Positions 35,815 to 42,465 of a stretch of DNA of 42,465 bases are shown piece after piece (position 1 is the stretch's first letter; every line of letters starts with the position of its first letter). This DNA comes from a bacterium (GTDB taxonomy: Bacteria; Margulisbacteria; Marinamargulisbacteria; CANKTL01). A model generated the notes under the pieces. The model was not told the DNA's origin. It saw nothing but the letters and a program-made list of their open reading frames with translations, and did not search any database. Location: positions 1 to 42,465 of the forward strand of contig CANKTL010000003.1 in NCBI GenBank assembly GCA_947486405.1. Direction: 5' to 3'. A program made the translations under genes and the position numbers.

Positions 35815-37174
35815 TGGCGTTGTAGGTCCTTGCTGCCGCTAAAATACCGGCTGATTTGTCTAAGGTTTCTTGCCACTCGGCGGTGGGATCTGAATCGGCC
35901 ACAATGCCGCCACCGGCGTGAAAATACCACCGATTGCGGTCGCCGTACATCGTGCGAATGGCAATGTTGAAATCGGCGTTCCCCGAATCGGACCAATAGC
36001 CAATACTGCCGGTGTAAATATTGCGTGGTGTGGTTTCGAGTTTGGCAATGAGTTGAGCGGCGCGAATTTTGGGCGCACCGGTAATGGATCCGCAGGGGAA
36101 CAGGGCTTGAAACACCGATGAAAGAGTAATGTCGGGTCGTAATTTCCCGGCAATGGTTGAGATCAAATGATGCACCTGTGCAAAACTGGACACCTGTTTG
36201 AGATTGGGGACCGAAATACTGCCCGTCTCGCAAATTCGGCCTAAATCATTGCGAATTAAATCAGTGATCATGAGCAACTCGGCACTGTCTTTTTTAGAGT
36301 TGAGGAGCTCGTTTTTGAGTGCGGCGTCGATATCGGGGTTGAGGTTTCGGGGGCGGGTGCCTTTGATGGGGTTGCAGGTAATTGCGCCGTCGGAAATTTG
36401 GAAAAATCGCTCGGGCGACGCGCTGAATATAGTGCCCGATCCTAGGTTGATCAGCGCGGCATGCGGGGCGGGCGACGTGACACGCAGGGCATCGTAAAAC
36501 CGAATAGGGTCAATTTCGCCCGTCGCGCTAAATCGGTGGGATAAATTGGCTTGGTAAATGTCCCCGTTGGTGATGGCGTCTTTGAGTTCTTTTACTAATG
36601 GTAAATAGGTTTGTTTTGAAAATAATGAGGTAAAAGGGGAAATCTGCTTTCCGGGGCCGGGTTTAAATTTGCTGGCCGTGATGTCGGAAAATGCGATGGG
36701 AAAAATCGCGGGTTCGGAGGAATCGTTTTCAAAATACCAGGCCGATTTTTGGCCTTGGTGAATGGCTACCCCGTGATTGAAAAAGCCCACCACTGAAATC
36801 GCGGTTTCAGGTGGTGTTAAAAATGAAAAATCAGAAAAATGATTGGCCGATTCGTATCCAAAATAACCTACCATGCCGCCCGAAAACGGGATATTAAATT
36901 CACTACTGGGGGGAACCAACTCTCGTCGCTTCTCAAGTTCAACTGTGGCCAACTCAAAAATAGAAGCCGGATCATCATATGAGTCTTTCGCGGTAATTAC
37001 CCGGCAGTGATCCCGATACTGAATAATAATTTTAACCGGCGACCATCCTAGGAAGGACCAATCTCCCGCCGTGTGGCCATAACAACTATCTAAAAAAAAG
37101 GAGTAGGGCATCCGGCAAACAGACTTCCATAAGTCCAATGCCTGACGGTAAAAAATAGGGTTAGTGCGCAGCAT
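35783..37174 (-). CDS. pabB: Aminodeoxychorismate synthase component I
   Basis: GDIYQANL, SASPERF, PIKGTRPR, AELLMITDL.RNDLGR, FPCGSITGAPK, NIAIRT, GGGIVADS. Confidence 0.9.
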   Translation of the reverse strand: MLRTNPIFYRQALDLWKSVCRMPYSFFLDSCYGHTAGDWSFLGWSPVKIIIQYRDHCRVITAKDSYDDPASIFELATVELEKRRELVPPSSEFNIPFSGGMVGYFGYESANHFSDFSFLTPPETAISVVGFFNHGVAIHQGQKSAWYFENDSSEPAIFPIAFSDITASKFKPGPGKQISPFTSLFSKQTYLPLVKELKDAITNGDIYQANLSHRFSATGEIDPIRFYDALRVTSPAPHAALINLGSGTIFSASPERFFQISDGAITCNPIKGTRPRNLNPDIDAALKNELLNSKKDSAELLMITDLIRNDLGRICETGSISVPNLKQVSSFAQVHHLISTIAGKLRPDITLSSVFQALFPCGSITGAPKIRAAQLIAKLETTPRNIYTGSIGYWSDSGNADFNIAIRTMYGDRNRWYFHAGGGIVADSDPTAEWQETLDKSAGILAAARTYNANVSTPSLRFS

Positions 37175-38963
37175 CGTCTATTTTAAGGATCGTCATGAAC
37201 GCGTCCTTGGGCACTTGAATGGACCCGATACTTTTCATTTTCTTTTTGCCCTCTTTTTGTTTCTCAAGCAGTTTTCGTTTTCGCGAAATATCACCGCCAT
37301 AACACTTGGCTGTGACGTTTTTGCGGATGGCGCTAATCGACTCACGACATATAATTTTACCCCCAATTGCCCCTTGGATTGCAACGTCATACATTTGCTT
37401 TGGAATTTGTTCTTTTAACTTGGATGCCATCGAAGTCGCAATATGCCGCGCTTTGGATTCGTGAGCAATAAATGATAGCGCATCCACCGGATCACCATTG
37501 ATTTTCATATCAACTTTTACCAATTTGGCGGGCTGATATTCCTCAAACCAATAATCCATACTGGCATACCCTTTGGTACGGGATTTAAGCCGGTCAAAAA
37601 ATTGAGTGATCATTTCGTTTAATGGAATTGAAAACGTGAGCTGTTGACGCGTGTCATCCAGATATTCGGCCTTGCGGTAGATGGCGCGGCTATCTTGGCC
37701 CAGTTCCATGATGGTCCCGATATACTCATTGGGCGTAATGACGGTGAGGCCCATAAACGGCTCTTTCATCATCGCAACTCGGGTGGGATCGGGAAAATCA
37801 CTTGGGTTTTCCAGTAAAATTTCTTCACCATTGCTGAGGGTAAATTGATACGTGACGTTGGGCGCGGTGGCCACGATGTCCATATTGAATTCCCGCTCGA
37901 TGCGTTCCCGAATAATATCCATGTGCAGGAGGCCCAAAAACCCGCAACGGTATCCAAATCCCAATGCCTGGGAGCTTTCGGGCATATATTGCAGGGCTGA
38001 GTCGTTTAATTTGAGTTTTTCAAGTGCGTCTTTGAGGTTGGGGTAGTCGTTGGTATCGACCGGATAAAGGCCGCAAAACACCATCGGTTTGGCCTCGCGA
38101 TAGCCGGGTAGAGCGGTGGGCGCGGGTTTTTTGGCGGAGGTAATGGTGTCGCCAATGTGCGCGTCTTCAACCGTTTTGATGTTGGATATGACATAACCGC
38201 TTTCGCCGTTTTCAATCGCTTGAGCGGCGGTCATTTTGGGTTTGAAAAAGCCCACATCCAACACATCAAAATCGCGACCAGTGTGCATCATCTGAATTTT
38301 TTGGCCTTTTTCAATTCGCCCGCTTTTCACACGTACATAGCAAATAACCCCGCGATACGCATCAAAATGGGCGTCAAAAATCAGGGCGCGAAGGTGATCG
38401 CTTTCAAATTGGGTGGGGGCTGGTACGCGGGAGACTACCGCTTCGAGAATTTCGATAATCCCAATGCCGCTTTTGGCGCTGGCCAGCAAACATTCTTCCT
38501 GTGGAATGCCCAGCACTCGCTCAATTTCTTCGGATACTTTATTTACGTTTGCAGAGGGCAAATCAATCTTATTAATAACGGGAATAATTTCTAAATTGTG
38601 CTCCAAAGCGAGATAAAAATTGGCCAAGGTTTGGGCTTCGATTCCTTGCGTGGCGTCTACCAACAAAAGTGCGCCTTCACAGGCCGCCAACGACCGAGAC
38701 ACTTCATAACTAAAATCCACGTGGCCGGGGGTATCAATAAGGTTGAGAATGTAATCTTCCCCATTTGCCGCTTTGTAGGTTAAGCGCACGGCCTGCATTT
38801 TAATCGTTATTCCCCGCTCGCGTTCCAGATCCATGGAGTCGAGTAACTGGGGTTTCATATCCCGCATTTCAACGGTGCGTGTGGCCTCAATTAAGCGGTC
38901 TGCCAAGGTTGATTTGCCGTGGTCGATGTGGGCAATGATGCAAAAGTTTCGAATATGTTTCAT
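37161..38963 (-). CDS. lepA: Elongation factor 4 (LepA)
   Basis: IRNFCIIAHIDHGKSTLADR, DTPGHVDF, GFLGLLH, KCYGGDISRK. Confidence 0.98.
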   Translation of the reverse strand: MKHIRNFCIIAHIDHGKSTLADRLIEATRTVEMRDMKPQLLDSMDLERERGITIKMQAVRLTYKAANGEDYILNLIDTPGHVDFSYEVSRSLAACEGALLLVDATQGIEAQTLANFYLALEHNLEIIPVINKIDLPSANVNKVSEEIERVLGIPQEECLLASAKSGIGIIEILEAVVSRVPAPTQFESDHLRALIFDAHFDAYRGVICYVRVKSGRIEKGQKIQMMHTGRDFDVLDVGFFKPKMTAAQAIENGESGYVISNIKTVEDAHIGDTITSAKKPAPTALPGYREAKPMVFCGLYPVDTNDYPNLKDALEKLKLNDSALQYMPESSQALGFGYRCGFLGLLHMDIIRERIEREFNMDIVATAPNVTYQFTLSNGEEILLENPSDFPDPTRVAMMKEPFMGLTVITPNEYIGTIMELGQDSRAIYRKAEYLDDTRQQLTFSIPLNEMITQFFDRLKSRTKGYASMDYWFEEYQPAKLVKVDMKINGDPVDALSFIAHESKARHIATSMASKLKEQIPKQMYDVAIQGAIGGKIICRESISAIRKNVTAKCYGGDISRKRKLLEKQKEGKKKMKSIGSIQVPKDAFMTILKIDDAAH

Positions 38964-38980: not shown

Positions 38981-39976
38981 ATGATAAAATCCTCTGTCGT
39001 GCCAATTCAAACCATCCAGCAATTAATAGAGCAGTCGCCCAGCCATCGTATTTTGGTGGTAGGAGATGTGATGTTGGACGAGTATTTGTGGTGCCAAGTG
39101 TCTCGTATTTCACCTGAGGCACCTGTGCCTGTTTGCGCGGTTTCCTCAACTACACATGTATTAGGTGGTGCTGCTAACGTCGCCGCTAATATTTTGGCCT
39201 TGGGCAGCGTGCCCATTTTGGTGGGTGTTGTGGGCGATGATCAGGGTGCCGAAAAGCTATTAAAATTGGCTGAATCCAAAAAAATTAATACCTCCGGCCT
39301 ATTGACCGTGGTCAAACGACCCACCAGCGTCAAAACTCGGATTGTGGCGCATCATCAGCACGTGGTGCGTGTGGATCACGAAACCTGCGAAGAAATTGCA
39401 ATGGCAGACCAGAATCGGGTCTTTGATGCCGTCAAATCTGAAATTGGAACAGCGAAAGCGCTGGTGTTATCGGATTATTCCAAAGGTGTGCTTACTGGCG
39501 AATTAACTCAGCGGCTAATTAAGCTGGCGGTTGAAAATAAGGTGCCGGTGCTGGTCGATCCCAAAGGCGATGACCCACATAAATATAAAGGAGCCACCAC
39601 CATGACTCCCAATTTTTCGGAATTCCAAATTTTCGCTAAAACCAAGTTTTCAGACGAGGCAAAAATCGCGGCTTTCGGTCAAAAATTGATTCAAGAATTG
39701 GGCCTTCAGGCTTTGTTAGTGACCCGGTCCGAAAAGGGCATGTCGTTGCTTAGTGCCAGCGAAAAACACGACATCCCCACCCGCGCGGTGGCCGTCTATG
39801 ACATCACTGGTGCTGGCGACACCGTTTTGGCCGCTTTTGCAGTGGCCATTGCCGACGGCTTGAACTATCTCACCGCGGCCCAGTTTGCGAATTATGCAGC
39901 GGGTGTTGTTGTTGCCAAAGTAGGTACTGCCACAACGACCTTGGCTGAAATAGCCCAGGTTTTAGACCATGCCTAA
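38981..39976 (+). CDS. rfaE1: D-glycero-beta-D-manno-heptose-7-phosphate kinase (possible start GTG 38999)
   Basis: GDVMLDEY, RISPEAPVP, GGAANVA, SDYSKG, VDPK, TPN, DITGAGDT. Confidence 0.94.
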   Translation: MIKSSVVPIQTIQQLIEQSPSHRILVVGDVMLDEYLWCQVSRISPEAPVPVCAVSSTTHVLGGAANVAANILALGSVPILVGVVGDDQGAEKLLKLAESKKINTSGLLTVVKRPTSVKTRIVAHHQHVVRVDHETCEEIAMADQNRVFDAVKSEIGTAKALVLSDYSKGVLTGELTQRLIKLAVENKVPVLVDPKGDDPHKYKGATTMTPNFSEFQIFAKTKFSDEAKIAAFGQKLIQELGLQALLVTRSEKGMSLLSASEKHDIPTRAVAVYDITGAGDTVLAAFAVAIADGLNYLTAAQFANYAAGVVVAKVGTATTTLAEIAQVLDHA

Positions 39977-40439
39977 CCCAGGTACAGTTGTTGCGTTTTC
40001 AGAGTTGGCGACGCTGGGAGATGAGCTCAGAAAAGCGGGCCAAAAAATCGTCTTTACGAATGGTTGCTTTGACATATTACACGCCGGGCACGTTCAAATT
40101 TTGGGACAAGCGCGTGCTTTAGGTGACCTACTGGTTGTGGCAATTAATTCCGATGCCAGCGTTCGAAAGCTAAAAGGCGAAAATCGGCCGATCCACTGTC
40201 AGGAAGACAGGGCAGATGTGCTGTTGGGACTTCGCGCGGTTGATTACGTCGTGGTTTTTGACACAGACACACCTATCGACTGTATTGCCGCACTCAAACC
40301 CGCCATTCACGTTAAAGGCGGGGACTATACCAAAGACCAGCTTCCCGAAACGAGAGTCGTGGAACAGTTTGGGGGCGAAGTTCGGATTTTGCCGCTTTTG
40401 CCAGGCCGATCGTCGAGTAGCGCGTTAAGTCGTCTTTGA
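39969..40439 (+). CDS. rfaE2: D-glycero-beta-D-manno-heptose 1-phosphate adenylyltransferase
   Basis: FTNGCFDILHAGH, NSDASVRKLKG..RP, VKGGDY. Confidence 0.95.
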   Translation: MPNPGTVVAFSELATLGDELRKAGQKIVFTNGCFDILHAGHVQILGQARALGDLLVVAINSDASVRKLKGENRPIHCQEDRADVLLGLRAVDYVVVFDTDTPIDCIAALKPAIHVKGGDYTKDQLPETRVVEQFGGEVRILPLLPGRSSSSALSRL

Positions 40440-40592
40440 TGGCTCTGGGGATCCATTCAGATCAAGAACCAATCCTAAAATATAATCAAACAACCCCAAC
40501 ACCGGGCCTAGGCATCCTAGATCGTGTGGCGAGTAGGAATTTGCCGCCCTGTGGCGACGGCCGTTGTGATCAAGTGCAATTATTTTATTCAT
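40425..40592 (-). CDS. Possible 55-aa small protein
   Basis: AAGGA 8 nt before ATG 40592; MNKIIALDHNGRRHRAANSYSPHDLGCLGPVLGLFDYILGLVLDLNGSPEPSKTT; no recognised homology. Confidence 0.3.
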   Translation of the reverse strand: MNKIIALDHNGRRHRAANSYSPHDLGCLGPVLGLFDYILGLVLDLNGSPEPSKTT

Positions 40593-40764
40593 AGTTTGAG
40601 TCCTTAAAAGGGCGTGGTATTCAACTTTCTTCTACATGATTACGAGTTATTAGTTGTCGGGATCGGATTTGAATAATTTCAAAGCTTCAAATAGCTACAG
40701 CCTTTGGCCTTTTCCTCCCCCTTCAACCTAAACCCAAAAACAACTATGAAACTTCTAATCGCCT

Positions 40765-40773
40765 TGTTATACT
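40765..40773 (+). promoter_or_regulatory. Extended -10 promoter of tRNA-Arg
   Basis: TGtTATACT ending 10 nt before the tRNA 5' end. Confidence 0.6.
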
Positions 40774-40783
40774 GACTGCGCTT

Positions 40784-40859
<76 letters not shown>

Positions 40860-40860
<1 letters not shown>

Positions 40861-40925
40861 GCCATCATTCAAAAATTGCCCCCTCCACGAGAAATTCGCC
40901 TGGGAACAATTTTTAAACGATGGCT
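40860..40925. repeat. 19-bp imperfect inverted repeat (hairpin) abutting the tRNA 3' end
   Basis: AGCCATCATTCAAAAATTG (40860-40878) versus CAATTTTTAAACGATGGCT (40907-40925): 17 of 19 complementary. Confidence 0.8.
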
Positions 40926-41002
40926 ACGAGTTCTTTCGATTGTTGCGCTTGCCTTTGGCTTTGCTTTTTTGTCGGAAGAAAGATAGATTTTTAGACGCCT
41001 CT

Positions 41003-41032
41003 TTGACAAACCTGTTTGCACTCAAGGACAAT
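41003..41032 (+). promoter_or_regulatory. Putative promoter of the crRNA-like element
   Basis: Perfect TTGACA (41003-41008), 18-nt spacer, GACAAT (41027-41032); predicted TSS near 41038-41040, where the closing stem begins. Confidence 0.55.
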
Positions 41033-41039
41033 TGATAGC

Positions 41040-41191
41040 GAGCCTTGGGGGTAACGAGTAGGTTCGATATGATTTCTACATTTGTAGATCCTAGCCTTGC
41101 GCAAATCGACCTAACAGAGGCTAAAGCTCCTCATTAATTTCTACTTTTGTAGATATAGATAGTAAATTTGGAGCCATTACCCCCAAAGCTC
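41040..41191 (+). ncRNA. Putative structured crRNA-like small RNA enclosing two Cas12a handles
   Basis: Closing stem GAGCCTTGGGGGTAA/TTACCCCCAAAGCTC (14 of 15), inner stem TAGGTTCGAT/ATCGACCTA, two TCTAC-N4-GTAGA hairpins. Confidence 0.55.
41071..41154 (+). CRISPR. Type V-A mini-array: degenerate handle, 29-nt spacer, full 36-nt repeat
   Basis: GATTTCTACATTTGTAGAT (41071-41089), spacer CCTAGCCTTGCGCAAATCGACCTAACAGA (41090-41118), GGCTAAAGCTCCTCATTAATTTCTACTTTTGTAGAT (41119-41154); matches the Cas12a repeat consensus AATTTCTACTnTTGTAGAT. Confidence 0.85.
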
Positions 41192-41303
41192 AGTTAGTAA
41201 GCTCCGTTTATATTTGCCAATATAACTATCCTTTAAAACAAAGCCTACATTTTGAACAATTAAATTTTAATAGATAATTTTTTGGATGATAGTGAATAAA
41301 CTA

Positions 41304-41332
41304 TTTACAACAAGCGGCAAGGGTGCTACTTT
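41304..41332 (+). promoter_or_regulatory. Putative cas12a promoter
   Basis: TTTACA (41304-41309), 17-nt spacer, TGc-TACTTT (-10 at 41327-41332); RBS AAGGAG at 41380-41385. Confidence 0.55.
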
Positions 41333-41391
41333 TCCGTCAGTCACCCGCCCTCCACGAACACGGCACAGATTTAATCTAAAAGGAGAAAAAT

Positions 41392-42465
41392 ATGAAAAAA
41401 CCCGAAAAGATACACGAATCCAAAACCAACCTTTATTCGGTTAGTAAAACGCTGCGCTTCAAACTAAAGCCTATCGGGGAAACCGAAATTACCTTTGATT
41501 CTAGCAAAATTCGCGACGAGGATGAAAAGCGAAACGTGGCGTACCAGGAAGTCAAAAAAATGATGGATGTGCTACATCGGAATTTCATTAACGACACACT
41601 GAATAGCATCCGTCTCAATTCTGACTTACTTGAAAAATATATCGGCTTGTTTCAGATAAAGGACAAGGACGAGAAACAAAAAAAAGACCTAACGGACACT
41701 CAATCCAAACTCCGAAAAGAAATCCATTTAAAATTCACAGAAGAGGGGCTCTATAAGCATTTGTTTGATAAAGAAGTTCTCCAACTACTCAAGGACGATA
41801 TTGAACGGATTCGCAATGACAAGCACATCAGCCTAAGCCCCAATGATGCTTTGGACTGCATTAACCAGTTTGATAAATTCACTACCTATTTTCGGGGCTT
41901 CTTTGAAAATCGAAAAAATATGTATTCTCATGACGAAATACATACCAGCGTGACCCACCGAATCGTTAACGAAAACATCCCTATTTTCTTGCAGAACCAA
42001 AATACGTTTCAAAAATTGAATTCAAAATACCCTGAAATACTTTCTAAGTTTGAAGAAAAGCAATTCAAACAAATCCTCGACAAATTCAAAATGGATACCT
42101 ACCCTCCTTTAGCGTCTATTTTTGAAAATGATTCTATCAACCGCATCCTAGATCAAAATGGTATCGATTTTTACAATGCCATTCTGGGTGCTTACAAAGA
42201 GGATAACAAGATTAAATCCATCATCGGATTAAACCAATTAATCAACCAAGAATGCCACCAAACTGGGGACAAAACTATCGGTAAATTATCTAAATTAAAA
42301 AAACAGATTCTTTCAGATATCGGATCCATATCCACCCGTCCAGAACCCTTTGTTACTGACAGTGATATGTATGTAGCGGTCGCCAAATTCTACGAAATCA
42401 GTCGCGATTCATTTTCAAATTTAGAACGGGTTATAAGCTCATTAGCGGAAGGGCAGCTCCCAACA
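41392..42465 (+). CDS. cas12a: Type V-A CRISPR effector Cas12a (Cpf1), N-terminal 358 aa, runs off the window end
   Basis: Hand translation shows no stop codon. Motifs TNLYSVSKTLRFKLKPIGET, DEKRNVAYQEVKKMMD, FTTYFRGFFENRKNMYS, HRIVNEN, GIDFYNAILG, GLNQLIN and LKKQILSD are the WED-I/REC1 motifs of Cas12a. Strong RBS and adjacent V-A repeats. Confidence 0.96.
   Translation, partial: MKKPEKIHESKTNLYSVSKTLRFKLKPIGETEITFDSSKIRDEDEKRNVAYQEVKKMMDVLHRNFINDTLNSIRLNSDLLEKYIGLFQIKDKDEKQKKDLTDTQSKLRKEIHLKFTEEGLYKHLFDKEVLQLLKDDIERIRNDKHISLSPNDALDCINQFDKFTTYFRGFFENRKNMYSHDEIHTSVTHRIVNENIPIFLQNQNTFQKLNSKYPEILSKFEEKQFKQILDKFKMDTYPPLASIFENDSINRILDQNGIDFYNAILGAYKEDNKIKSIIGLNQLINQECHQTGDKTIGKLSKLKKQILSDIGSISTRPEPFVTDSDMYVAVAKFYEISRDSFSNLERVISSLAEGQLPT

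Follow-up and report, generated by a model that had tools for sequence, protein, structure and literature searches.

A two-handle mini-array upstream of cas12a in a lake metagenome-assembled genome: a candidate CreR-type autoregulator

The stretch of DNA analysed here (the window) is a bacterial contig of 42,465 nt, CANKTL010000003.1 of assembly GCA_947486405.1, that ends inside a cas12a gene. Shortly upstream of this gene lies a small element built from parts of a type V-A clustered regularly interspaced short palindromic repeat (CRISPR) array. On balance, we favour reading it as a CreR-type Cas-regulating mini-array, in which an RNA made of the one full repeat (R2) and the guide that follows it (S2) would autorepress cas12a. 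Directly observed are the sequence elements, a match of S2 to a seed flanked by a protospacer-adjacent motif (PAM) together with the rarity of that match, a difference between alleles of the matched site, and a like logic in other cas12a loci. A preliminary description of this DNA had proposed a dedicated regulatory RNA resembling a CRISPR RNA (crRNA) rather than a working immune array. That view is supported by the PAM-flanked seed of S2, which is longer in the allele of another lake sample (X5), by the handle-only first copy of the repeat and by the intact last repeat.

The features, all on the forward strand, are as follows.

41003-41032, +: sigma-70-like promoter candidate; TTGACA at 41003-41008, an 18-nt spacer and GACAAT at 41027-41032; a consensus match only
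41040-41054, +: 5' arm of a long stem, the clamp; GAGCCTTGGGGGTAA; pair probabilities 0.67-1.0 in a 177-nt transcript model
41071-41089, +: psiR1, the first handle; the 3' 18-19 nt of the repeat only
41090-41118, +: S1, spacer-like; the 29 nt between the two handles
41119-41154, +: R2, full V-A CRISPR repeat of 36 nt with an intact, perfect handle at 41136-41154
41155-41176, +: S2, the guide after R2; ATAGATAGTAAATTTGGAGCCA; its first 22 nt, up to the clamp arm
41170-41216, +: weak terminator-like hairpin; GGAGC(CA)TTAC, a 16-nt loop and GTAAGCTCC (41170-41205), then GTTTATATTTG
41177-41191, +: 3' arm of the clamp; TTACCCCCAAAGCTC; pairs with 41040-41054
41266-41289, +: predicted S2 target; PAM TTTA at 41266-41269 and ATAGATAATTTTTTGGATGA at 41270-41289
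41392-42465, +: 5' part of cas12a; 358 N-terminal codons, the gene being broken off by the contig end

The two Cas12a handles reported earlier are present, 29 nt apart, the second belonging to a full 36-nt repeat. Their cores, ATTTCTACATTTGTAGAT (41072-41089) and ATTTCTACTTTTGTAGAT (41137-41154), are identical at 17 of 18 positions, and 17 of 19 agree over 19 nt. The first handle was said to keep the 3' 18 nt of the repeat with A in place of the U after UCUAC, and so it does; relative to the intact handle it has a G at the position of A41136 and an A for the T after TCTAC. The 5' flank of psiR1 (41054-41071) matches the repeat at 5 of 18 positions, giving 22 of 36 for the whole first copy, which cannot act as a normal repeat because its 5' half is lost. 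R2 is the only full-length repeat at a locus where an ordinary array would have at least two near-identical ones. A search with the 19-nt handle, allowing up to two mismatches, returned just these two matches in the 983,649-base assembly, and none with the reversed control pattern. Both handles are on the strand of cas12a, 238-321 nt before its ATG at 41392, and the element as a whole spans 200-390 nt upstream of the gene.

The promoter-like site TTGACA-N18-GACAAT of the preliminary description is likewise found. It matches the consensus at 10 of 12 positions and is the top site in 40600-41500, where the scan gave 3 sites against 1.6 expected. From its position, transcription of the mini-array is predicted to start near 41039-41041.

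Deletion of the upstream part of the repeat had no significant effect on Cas12a binding or processing in vitro (PMC11404446), so psiR1, which retains just the pseudoknot part of the handle-bearing repeat, could still be cut. A T follows TCTAC in all 12 correctly oriented handles of the locus survey described below, and psiR1 has A there. In structures of Cas12a with crRNA the corresponding U pairs with a handle A, so that Cas12a may process psiR1 less well.

At this locus the last repeat, R2, is intact and the first copy degenerate. Ordinary V-A arrays show the opposite pattern: it is usually the last repeat that is mutated or disabled, avoiding an extraneous crRNA (PMC13187072), and L052 of the survey below is an example. 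Because the pattern is reversed in this way, R2 with S2 can be read as a co-opted extraneous crRNA (ecrRNA).

Each guide was compared with the DNA that separates the element from cas12a, in search of PAM-proximal matches flanked by TTTV. S2 has one, TTTA followed by ATAGATA (41266-41276), with a 7-nt seed and 12 of 20 positions matched overall, 103-126 nt upstream of the cas12a start codon. Dinucleotide shuffling of the 200-nt region equalled this seed match in 12 of 5000 trials, and shuffled guides did so in 7 of 5000 (28 of 5000 over a 730-nt region); it is the sole site with TTTV and the 7-nt S2 seed on either strand of the 984-kb assembly. The best seed of S1 near cas12a is 2 nt, no TTTV with a 6-nt S1 seed occurs anywhere in the assembly, and the best self-matches of S1 there have E values of 0.8 or worse. 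A match of S1 at 17 of 20 positions on contig C34, with no PAM and a mismatch at position 2, was taken as chance. Against GenBank phages the best E value for the spacers was 0.5, with all matches in the handle region, and exact-pattern scans of IMG/VR with locus sequences gave 0 matches, both absences being weak evidence. Exact DNA patterns from the locus also gave 0 matches in JGI metagenomes.

To place this match we surveyed 80 of 473 detected cas12a loci (33-40% identity), 73 of which had at least 300 nt upstream. A handle lies within 600 nt upstream in 6 of the 73, three in the orientation of the gene and three opposite, against 1 of 73 in a shuffled control. All five loci with a single handle have TTTA and a seed of 7-11 nt near the cas12a start (L027, 9; L050, 7; L055, 11; L065, 7; L078 from Moraxella sp., 9). 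Shuffled guides equalled these seeds in 1-26 of 5000 trials, and off-diagonal pairings, of a guide with the region of another locus, gave seeds of at most 4 nt save one of 7 and one of 6. A TTTA-plus-seed rule for single upstream handles may thus be general, as suggested by its holding in five of five loci, whereas Shmakov et al. found no conserved V-A targeting pattern in their published account (PMC10120712). The S2 match appears to fit this recurrent rule, at its weak end. Neither a second handle nor a leader-to-tail helix beyond chance was found in the five single-handle loci, their best helices being equalled by 24-144 of 200 shuffles.

Several surveyed loci have features of their own. 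L050 (Chitinophagales, handle at about -105) and L065 (Chryseobacterium, at about -70), both Bacteroidota, have a single handle divergent to cas12a. Their guides seem related, sharing GTTATAAA and then CCTG, and at both loci a TTTA with a 7-nt seed site sits where cas12a starts; the pair looks like a conserved divergent creR family. The handle of L055 (Paludibacteraceae) is at -93. Its seed is the longest, at 11 nt, and the site that the guide matches, at -170 and on the other strand, precedes the creR-like unit itself; the guide holds its own small hairpin. At L052 an array lies 170-740 nt upstream of cas12a and is read toward the gene, with at least seven repeats within 600 nt. Its terminal repeat has kept the 5' half and lost the handle hairpin, and its last guide has no seed of 6 nt or more.

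Four DNA runs from lake metagenomes (X2-X5) were compared with positions 40500-42465 of the window. The mini-array is letter-identical in X2 (contig covering 40802-41476) and X3 (contig covering 41031-41196). An X5 contig joins 41154 back to 41119 with 29 letters between, and an X4 contig joins 41154 back to 41116 with 23 letters between, both being repeat-spacer-repeat joints; R2 is thus a genuine 36-nt CRISPR repeat in arrays of these communities. Another X5 contig, covering 41155-41365, differs from the window at four positions (41223, 41277, 41297 and 41309), none of them within S2. The change at 41277, A to G, falls on target position 8 and turns a mismatch into a match, so that the seed grows to 9 contiguous nt and the overall match to 13 of 20. 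Of the 633 single changes possible in this 211-nt contig, about 8 would create a further matched position and 1 would lengthen the seed; for four changes the chances are about 5% and 0.6%. None of the X4 and X5 contigs, at 80% likeness or more, spans 40896-41093, so psiR1, S1 and the 5' clamp arm are not covered. An X4 contig (41329-41579) has G for A at 41392, changing the cas12a start from ATG to GTG, still a start codon and possibly a weaker one.

These results bear on the notion that the element is a decoy, its two handles titrating Cas12a away without useful guiding. Shmakov et al. suggested such a titration role for V-A standalone repeats, for which they describe no conserved targets (PMC10120712); S1 has no target in the assembly, and Cas12a binds pre-crRNA at picomolar affinity (PMC11404446). 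A sponge would account neither for the PAM-plus-seed match of S2 and its behaviour in the X5 allele nor for the promoter-proximal targets in all five comparable loci, and we regard it as very improbable.

Under the CreR-type reading, the promoter at 41003-41032 would transcribe psiR1, S1, R2 and S2 together. Cas12a would bind the two handle pseudoknots and cut just 5' of each. The R2-S2 RNA would then guide Cas12a to the TTTA-flanked site at 41266-41289, where it would bind without cutting because pairing is confined to the 7-9-nt PAM-proximal seed (12-13 of 20 positions overall). Bound Cas12a would lower cas12a transcription, either by covering the promoter of the gene or by halting transcription that runs on from the mini-array promoter, a negative feedback that would be lifted when ordinary crRNAs or anti-CRISPRs occupy Cas12a. 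We infer in this scheme that the element is transcribed and processed, that Cas12a binds and represses, and where the cas12a promoter lies. The preliminary description had envisaged a single RNA of about 150 nt; the CreR model does not predict a stable one, since cuts by Cas12a at the two handles would break it up.

The two handles are enclosed by an inverted repeat that had been given as 15 bp. It holds up as such, the 15-nt arms 41040-41054 and 41177-41191 being complementary at 14 of 15 positions (93%), and when the two 100-nt flanks were shuffled 200 times, no shuffle reached it; the clamp is non-random. In RNA folds of 152 and 211 nt the clamp closes the structure and both 5-bp handle hairpins form (z -4.05 and -2.87). 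It begins at S2 position 23, so that the first 22 nt of the guide lie outside it and handles and seed are left free. The clamp may serve to stabilise, protect or shape the primary transcript; alternatively, it may set where the S2 guide ends on its 3' side.

The clamp arms do not occur elsewhere in the assembly, and a mobile element with terminal inverted repeats was ruled out on that ground. An RNA from the minus strand folds better (-54 kcal/mol, z -5.3) and was also rejected: the handle flanks are correct only on the plus strand, and no minus-strand gene or promoter fits. Short motifs recur within the element. AGCCTTG is found in the 5' clamp arm (41041-41047) and at the start of S1 (41093-41099), and AAAGCTC(C) or TAAGCTCC in the 5' half of the repeat (41123-41130), in the 3' clamp arm (41185-41191) and 7 nt further on (41198-41205). 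These recurrences would allow alternative pairings, of the 3' arm with S1 and of the 5' arm with the repeat.

The recurrence of AAAGCTC at 41185-41191 had raised the suspicion of a degenerate third repeat after S2, but the best alignment there, 18 of 36, was equalled in 821 of 2000 shuffles, and the candidate was discarded. The same recurrence can be cited for a minimal or decaying ordinary V-A array with one or two old immune spacers, in which R2 and its downstream flank would make just an extraneous crRNA, and neither the seed match nor the inverted repeat would be more than an accident or a by-product. Same-orientation arrays upstream of cas12a do exist, as L052 with its seven or more repeats shows, R2 is identical to the array repeat of X4 and X5, the 29 nt of S1 equal the X5 spacer length, and one 7-nt seed turned up among the off-diagonal pairings. 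Yet the 5' half is missing from the first copy, the last repeat is intact instead of disabled, and no third repeat is detectable. The complementarity of the 3' end of S2 to the leader (0 of 200 shuffles) would be unexpected in a captured phage fragment, and the PAM and seed stand directly before cas12a and are unique in the assembly. We judge a decaying array to be a rather unlikely explanation.

The hairpin at 41170-41205 gives rise to a third alternative. It has nine pairs, a 2-nt bulge and a 16-nt loop (-6.3 kcal/mol alone), and a U-rich stretch, GUUUAUAUUUG, follows directly 3' of it at 41206-41216. In the models, hairpin and clamp would be mutually exclusive because both use 41177-41180. 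As long as the 5' arm is part of the RNA, the clamped conformer has the lowest energy, at -51.1 kcal/mol against -35.8 kcal/mol with the hairpin enforced (a gap of about 15), and hairpin pair probabilities are about 0. For RNAs that begin at 41071 or 41136, the 5' ends that Cas12a would leave, the minimum-energy fold includes the hairpin. A Cas12a-sensing attenuator might thus have been added to the CreR function. The clamp would form first and block the hairpin, allowing read-through into cas12a; plentiful Cas12a would cut psiR1 and R2 and free the 5' arm, whereupon the hairpin would form and transcription would terminate at 41206-41216. The clamp would then be an antiterminator dismantled by Cas12a, the truncated first handle would serve mainly as the cut site releasing it, and free Cas12a would be sensed twice, by attenuation and by S2 DNA binding, from one 150-nt RNA.

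We think it improbable that the element works as such an attenuator, and give the antiterminator role of the clamp an equally slender chance. The sharing of 41177-41180, the preference for the clamp while the 5' arm is attached, the emergence of the hairpin on cutting and the GTTTATATTTG directly 3' of it are all as the scheme would have them, and published V-A CreRs end in a rho-independent terminator (10.1101/2024.10.29.618823). Set against this, the hairpin is weak, with its long loop and its bulge, a terminator scan did not call it, the severed 5' arm could still pair in trans, and the idea is drawn from the folds and was formed after they had been seen.

The CreR-type reading, in which R2-S2 would direct Cas12a to its own gene, has several points against it. 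The seed of the window allele, at 7 nt, is below the 9-10 nt of published V-A cases, and, since one off-diagonal pairing also reached 7, a seed of this length alone is only moderately rare. Positions 10-12 of the S2-target pairing are mismatched in both alleles, and the X5 allele is read from one contig at a depth of 5.1 and was interpreted post hoc. S2 is followed neither by a degenerate repeat, the best candidate being the 18 of 36 dismissed above, nor by a strong terminator. No promoter was called in 41192-41391, and the best hand-read pair for cas12a, TTGAAC (41252-41257)-17-TAATTT (41275-41280), matches at 7 of 12 positions only. S1 and the clamp lie outside what the CreR model explains. 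There are, finally, no close relatives for an analysis of covariation: the protein search found no Cas12a above 41% identity, the locus survey none closer, and a scan of genome contigs with the single protein none either.

The window is the whole of contig C3 of a metagenome-assembled genome of 983,649 bases, 67% complete and with 47.6% GC. The open reading frame (ORF) starting at 41392 matches the Cas12a family TIGR04330 (E 2e-73), and a search among 5.8 billion proteins gave 92 full-length homologues, with identities of at most 41%. A search of the assembly for the rest of cas12a and for a cas1 found neither, which, at 67% completeness, does not show that they are absent. Among 60 related genomes searched, Cas12a was detected in one (G034), at 36% identity and with no handle in the 228 nt upstream. 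The ORF is preceded by a tRNA-Arg gene (40784-40860) and a 531-nt intergenic region; this tRNA is the sole match in an Rfam scan of 40000-42465 with E values up to 1. A promoter-like ATGAAA-16-TATACT at 40746-40773, whose second hexamer is preceded by TG, ends 11 nt 5' of the tRNA gene and suggests that sigma-70-type promoters are in use in this organism. No clear terminator was seen between tRNA-Arg and the mini-array promoter. Further upstream, the kinase (TIGR02198) and adenylyltransferase (TIGR02199) domains of HldE are encoded at 38981-40439 by two ORFs overlapping by 8 nt, not by a bifunctional gene. LepA (37161-38963, minus strand) is 70-76% identical to proteins named Candidatus Margulisbacteria or Marinamargulisbacteria, its nearest named relatives.

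The whole account is a sequence-level prediction. If it is true, Cas12a autorepression by a crRNA-like RNA reaches an uncultured lake lineage whose LepA is nearest to Margulisbacteria, and the element is a natural case in which a one-spacer array has had the guide of its last repeat, itself intact, turned into a regulator. The co-option of ecrRNAs for other purposes, which recent work raises as a possibility (PMC13187072), would then be realised. If termination or processing is controlled by the clamp and the second handle, these parts would offer a compact design for self-limiting Cas12a cassettes.

The preliminary description did not recognise the two-handle, clamped architecture as a described type. 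That the type is undescribed is not supported, as CreR RNAs encoded upstream of cas12a have been described experimentally (10.1101/2023.03.10.532045; 10.1101/2024.10.29.618823). In Moraxella bovoculi, CreR is a degenerate mini-CRISPR upstream of cas12a, partially matching a TTTA-flanked site beside the -35 element of the cas12a promoter, and together with Cas12a it represses this promoter about 33-fold in Escherichia coli (Liu et al., 10.1101/2023.03.10.532045). The Ruminococcus CreR has one repeat-like unit, a guide with 10 consecutive matches and a rho-independent terminator, as well as a viral mimic that also has 10 consecutive nt; the search threshold in that work was at least 9 PAM-proximal pairs (10.1101/2024.10.29.618823). 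Our element resembles these in having, upstream of cas12a, a repeat-like unit with the cognate 5' handle, R2 being the array repeat of X4 and X5, and in a guide that matches a TTTA-flanked site near the cas12a start over a short PAM-proximal stretch, a pattern that L078 shares. It differs from CreR in its second, truncated handle upstream with a 29-nt spacer of its own, in a candidate regulatory guide preceded by a perfect repeat of full length where CreR has a degenerate one, in the lack of a recognisable degenerate second repeat, in having only a weak terminator-like hairpin, in the 15-bp clamp from leader to guide tail, and in a seed of 7 nt (9 in the variant) as against the 10 nt of Ruminococcus.

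Other described elements share single traits with it. As in an ecrRNA, R2 is the last repeat and its guide comes from outside the spacer set. V-A arrays are reported to avoid an ecrRNA by mutating the last repeat (PMC13187072); in the window that repeat is intact, and its guide has a PAM-flanked match at cas12a. The leader-repeat hairpins of types II-A and VI and the guide-trapping hairpins of type II-C resemble the clamp in joining leader RNA to an element of the array further downstream, and their pairing shapes which crRNAs arise; there the leader pairs with the first repeat or traps the ecrRNA guide (PMC13187072), whereas in the clamp it pairs just 3' of guide position 22. Repeat-like units adjoin cas12a in about 34% of V-A loci, and two-unit mini-arrays in 4-15% (Shmakov et al., PMC10120712). 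Like these mini-arrays, ours has repeat-like sequences upstream of cas12a, with the difference that its target candidate belongs to the guide after the second unit and not to the spacer between units. In the accounts of CreR and of Shmakov et al. consulted for this comparison no second handle or long clamp of this kind appears; the lists of V-A creR genes and mini-arrays that belong to those papers may hold two-handle examples. The two-handle, clamped build is a variant found neither in the 73 other loci nor in the accounts consulted. The clamp and the second handle are the sole parts without precedent in those accounts, and the element itself belongs to a described kind.

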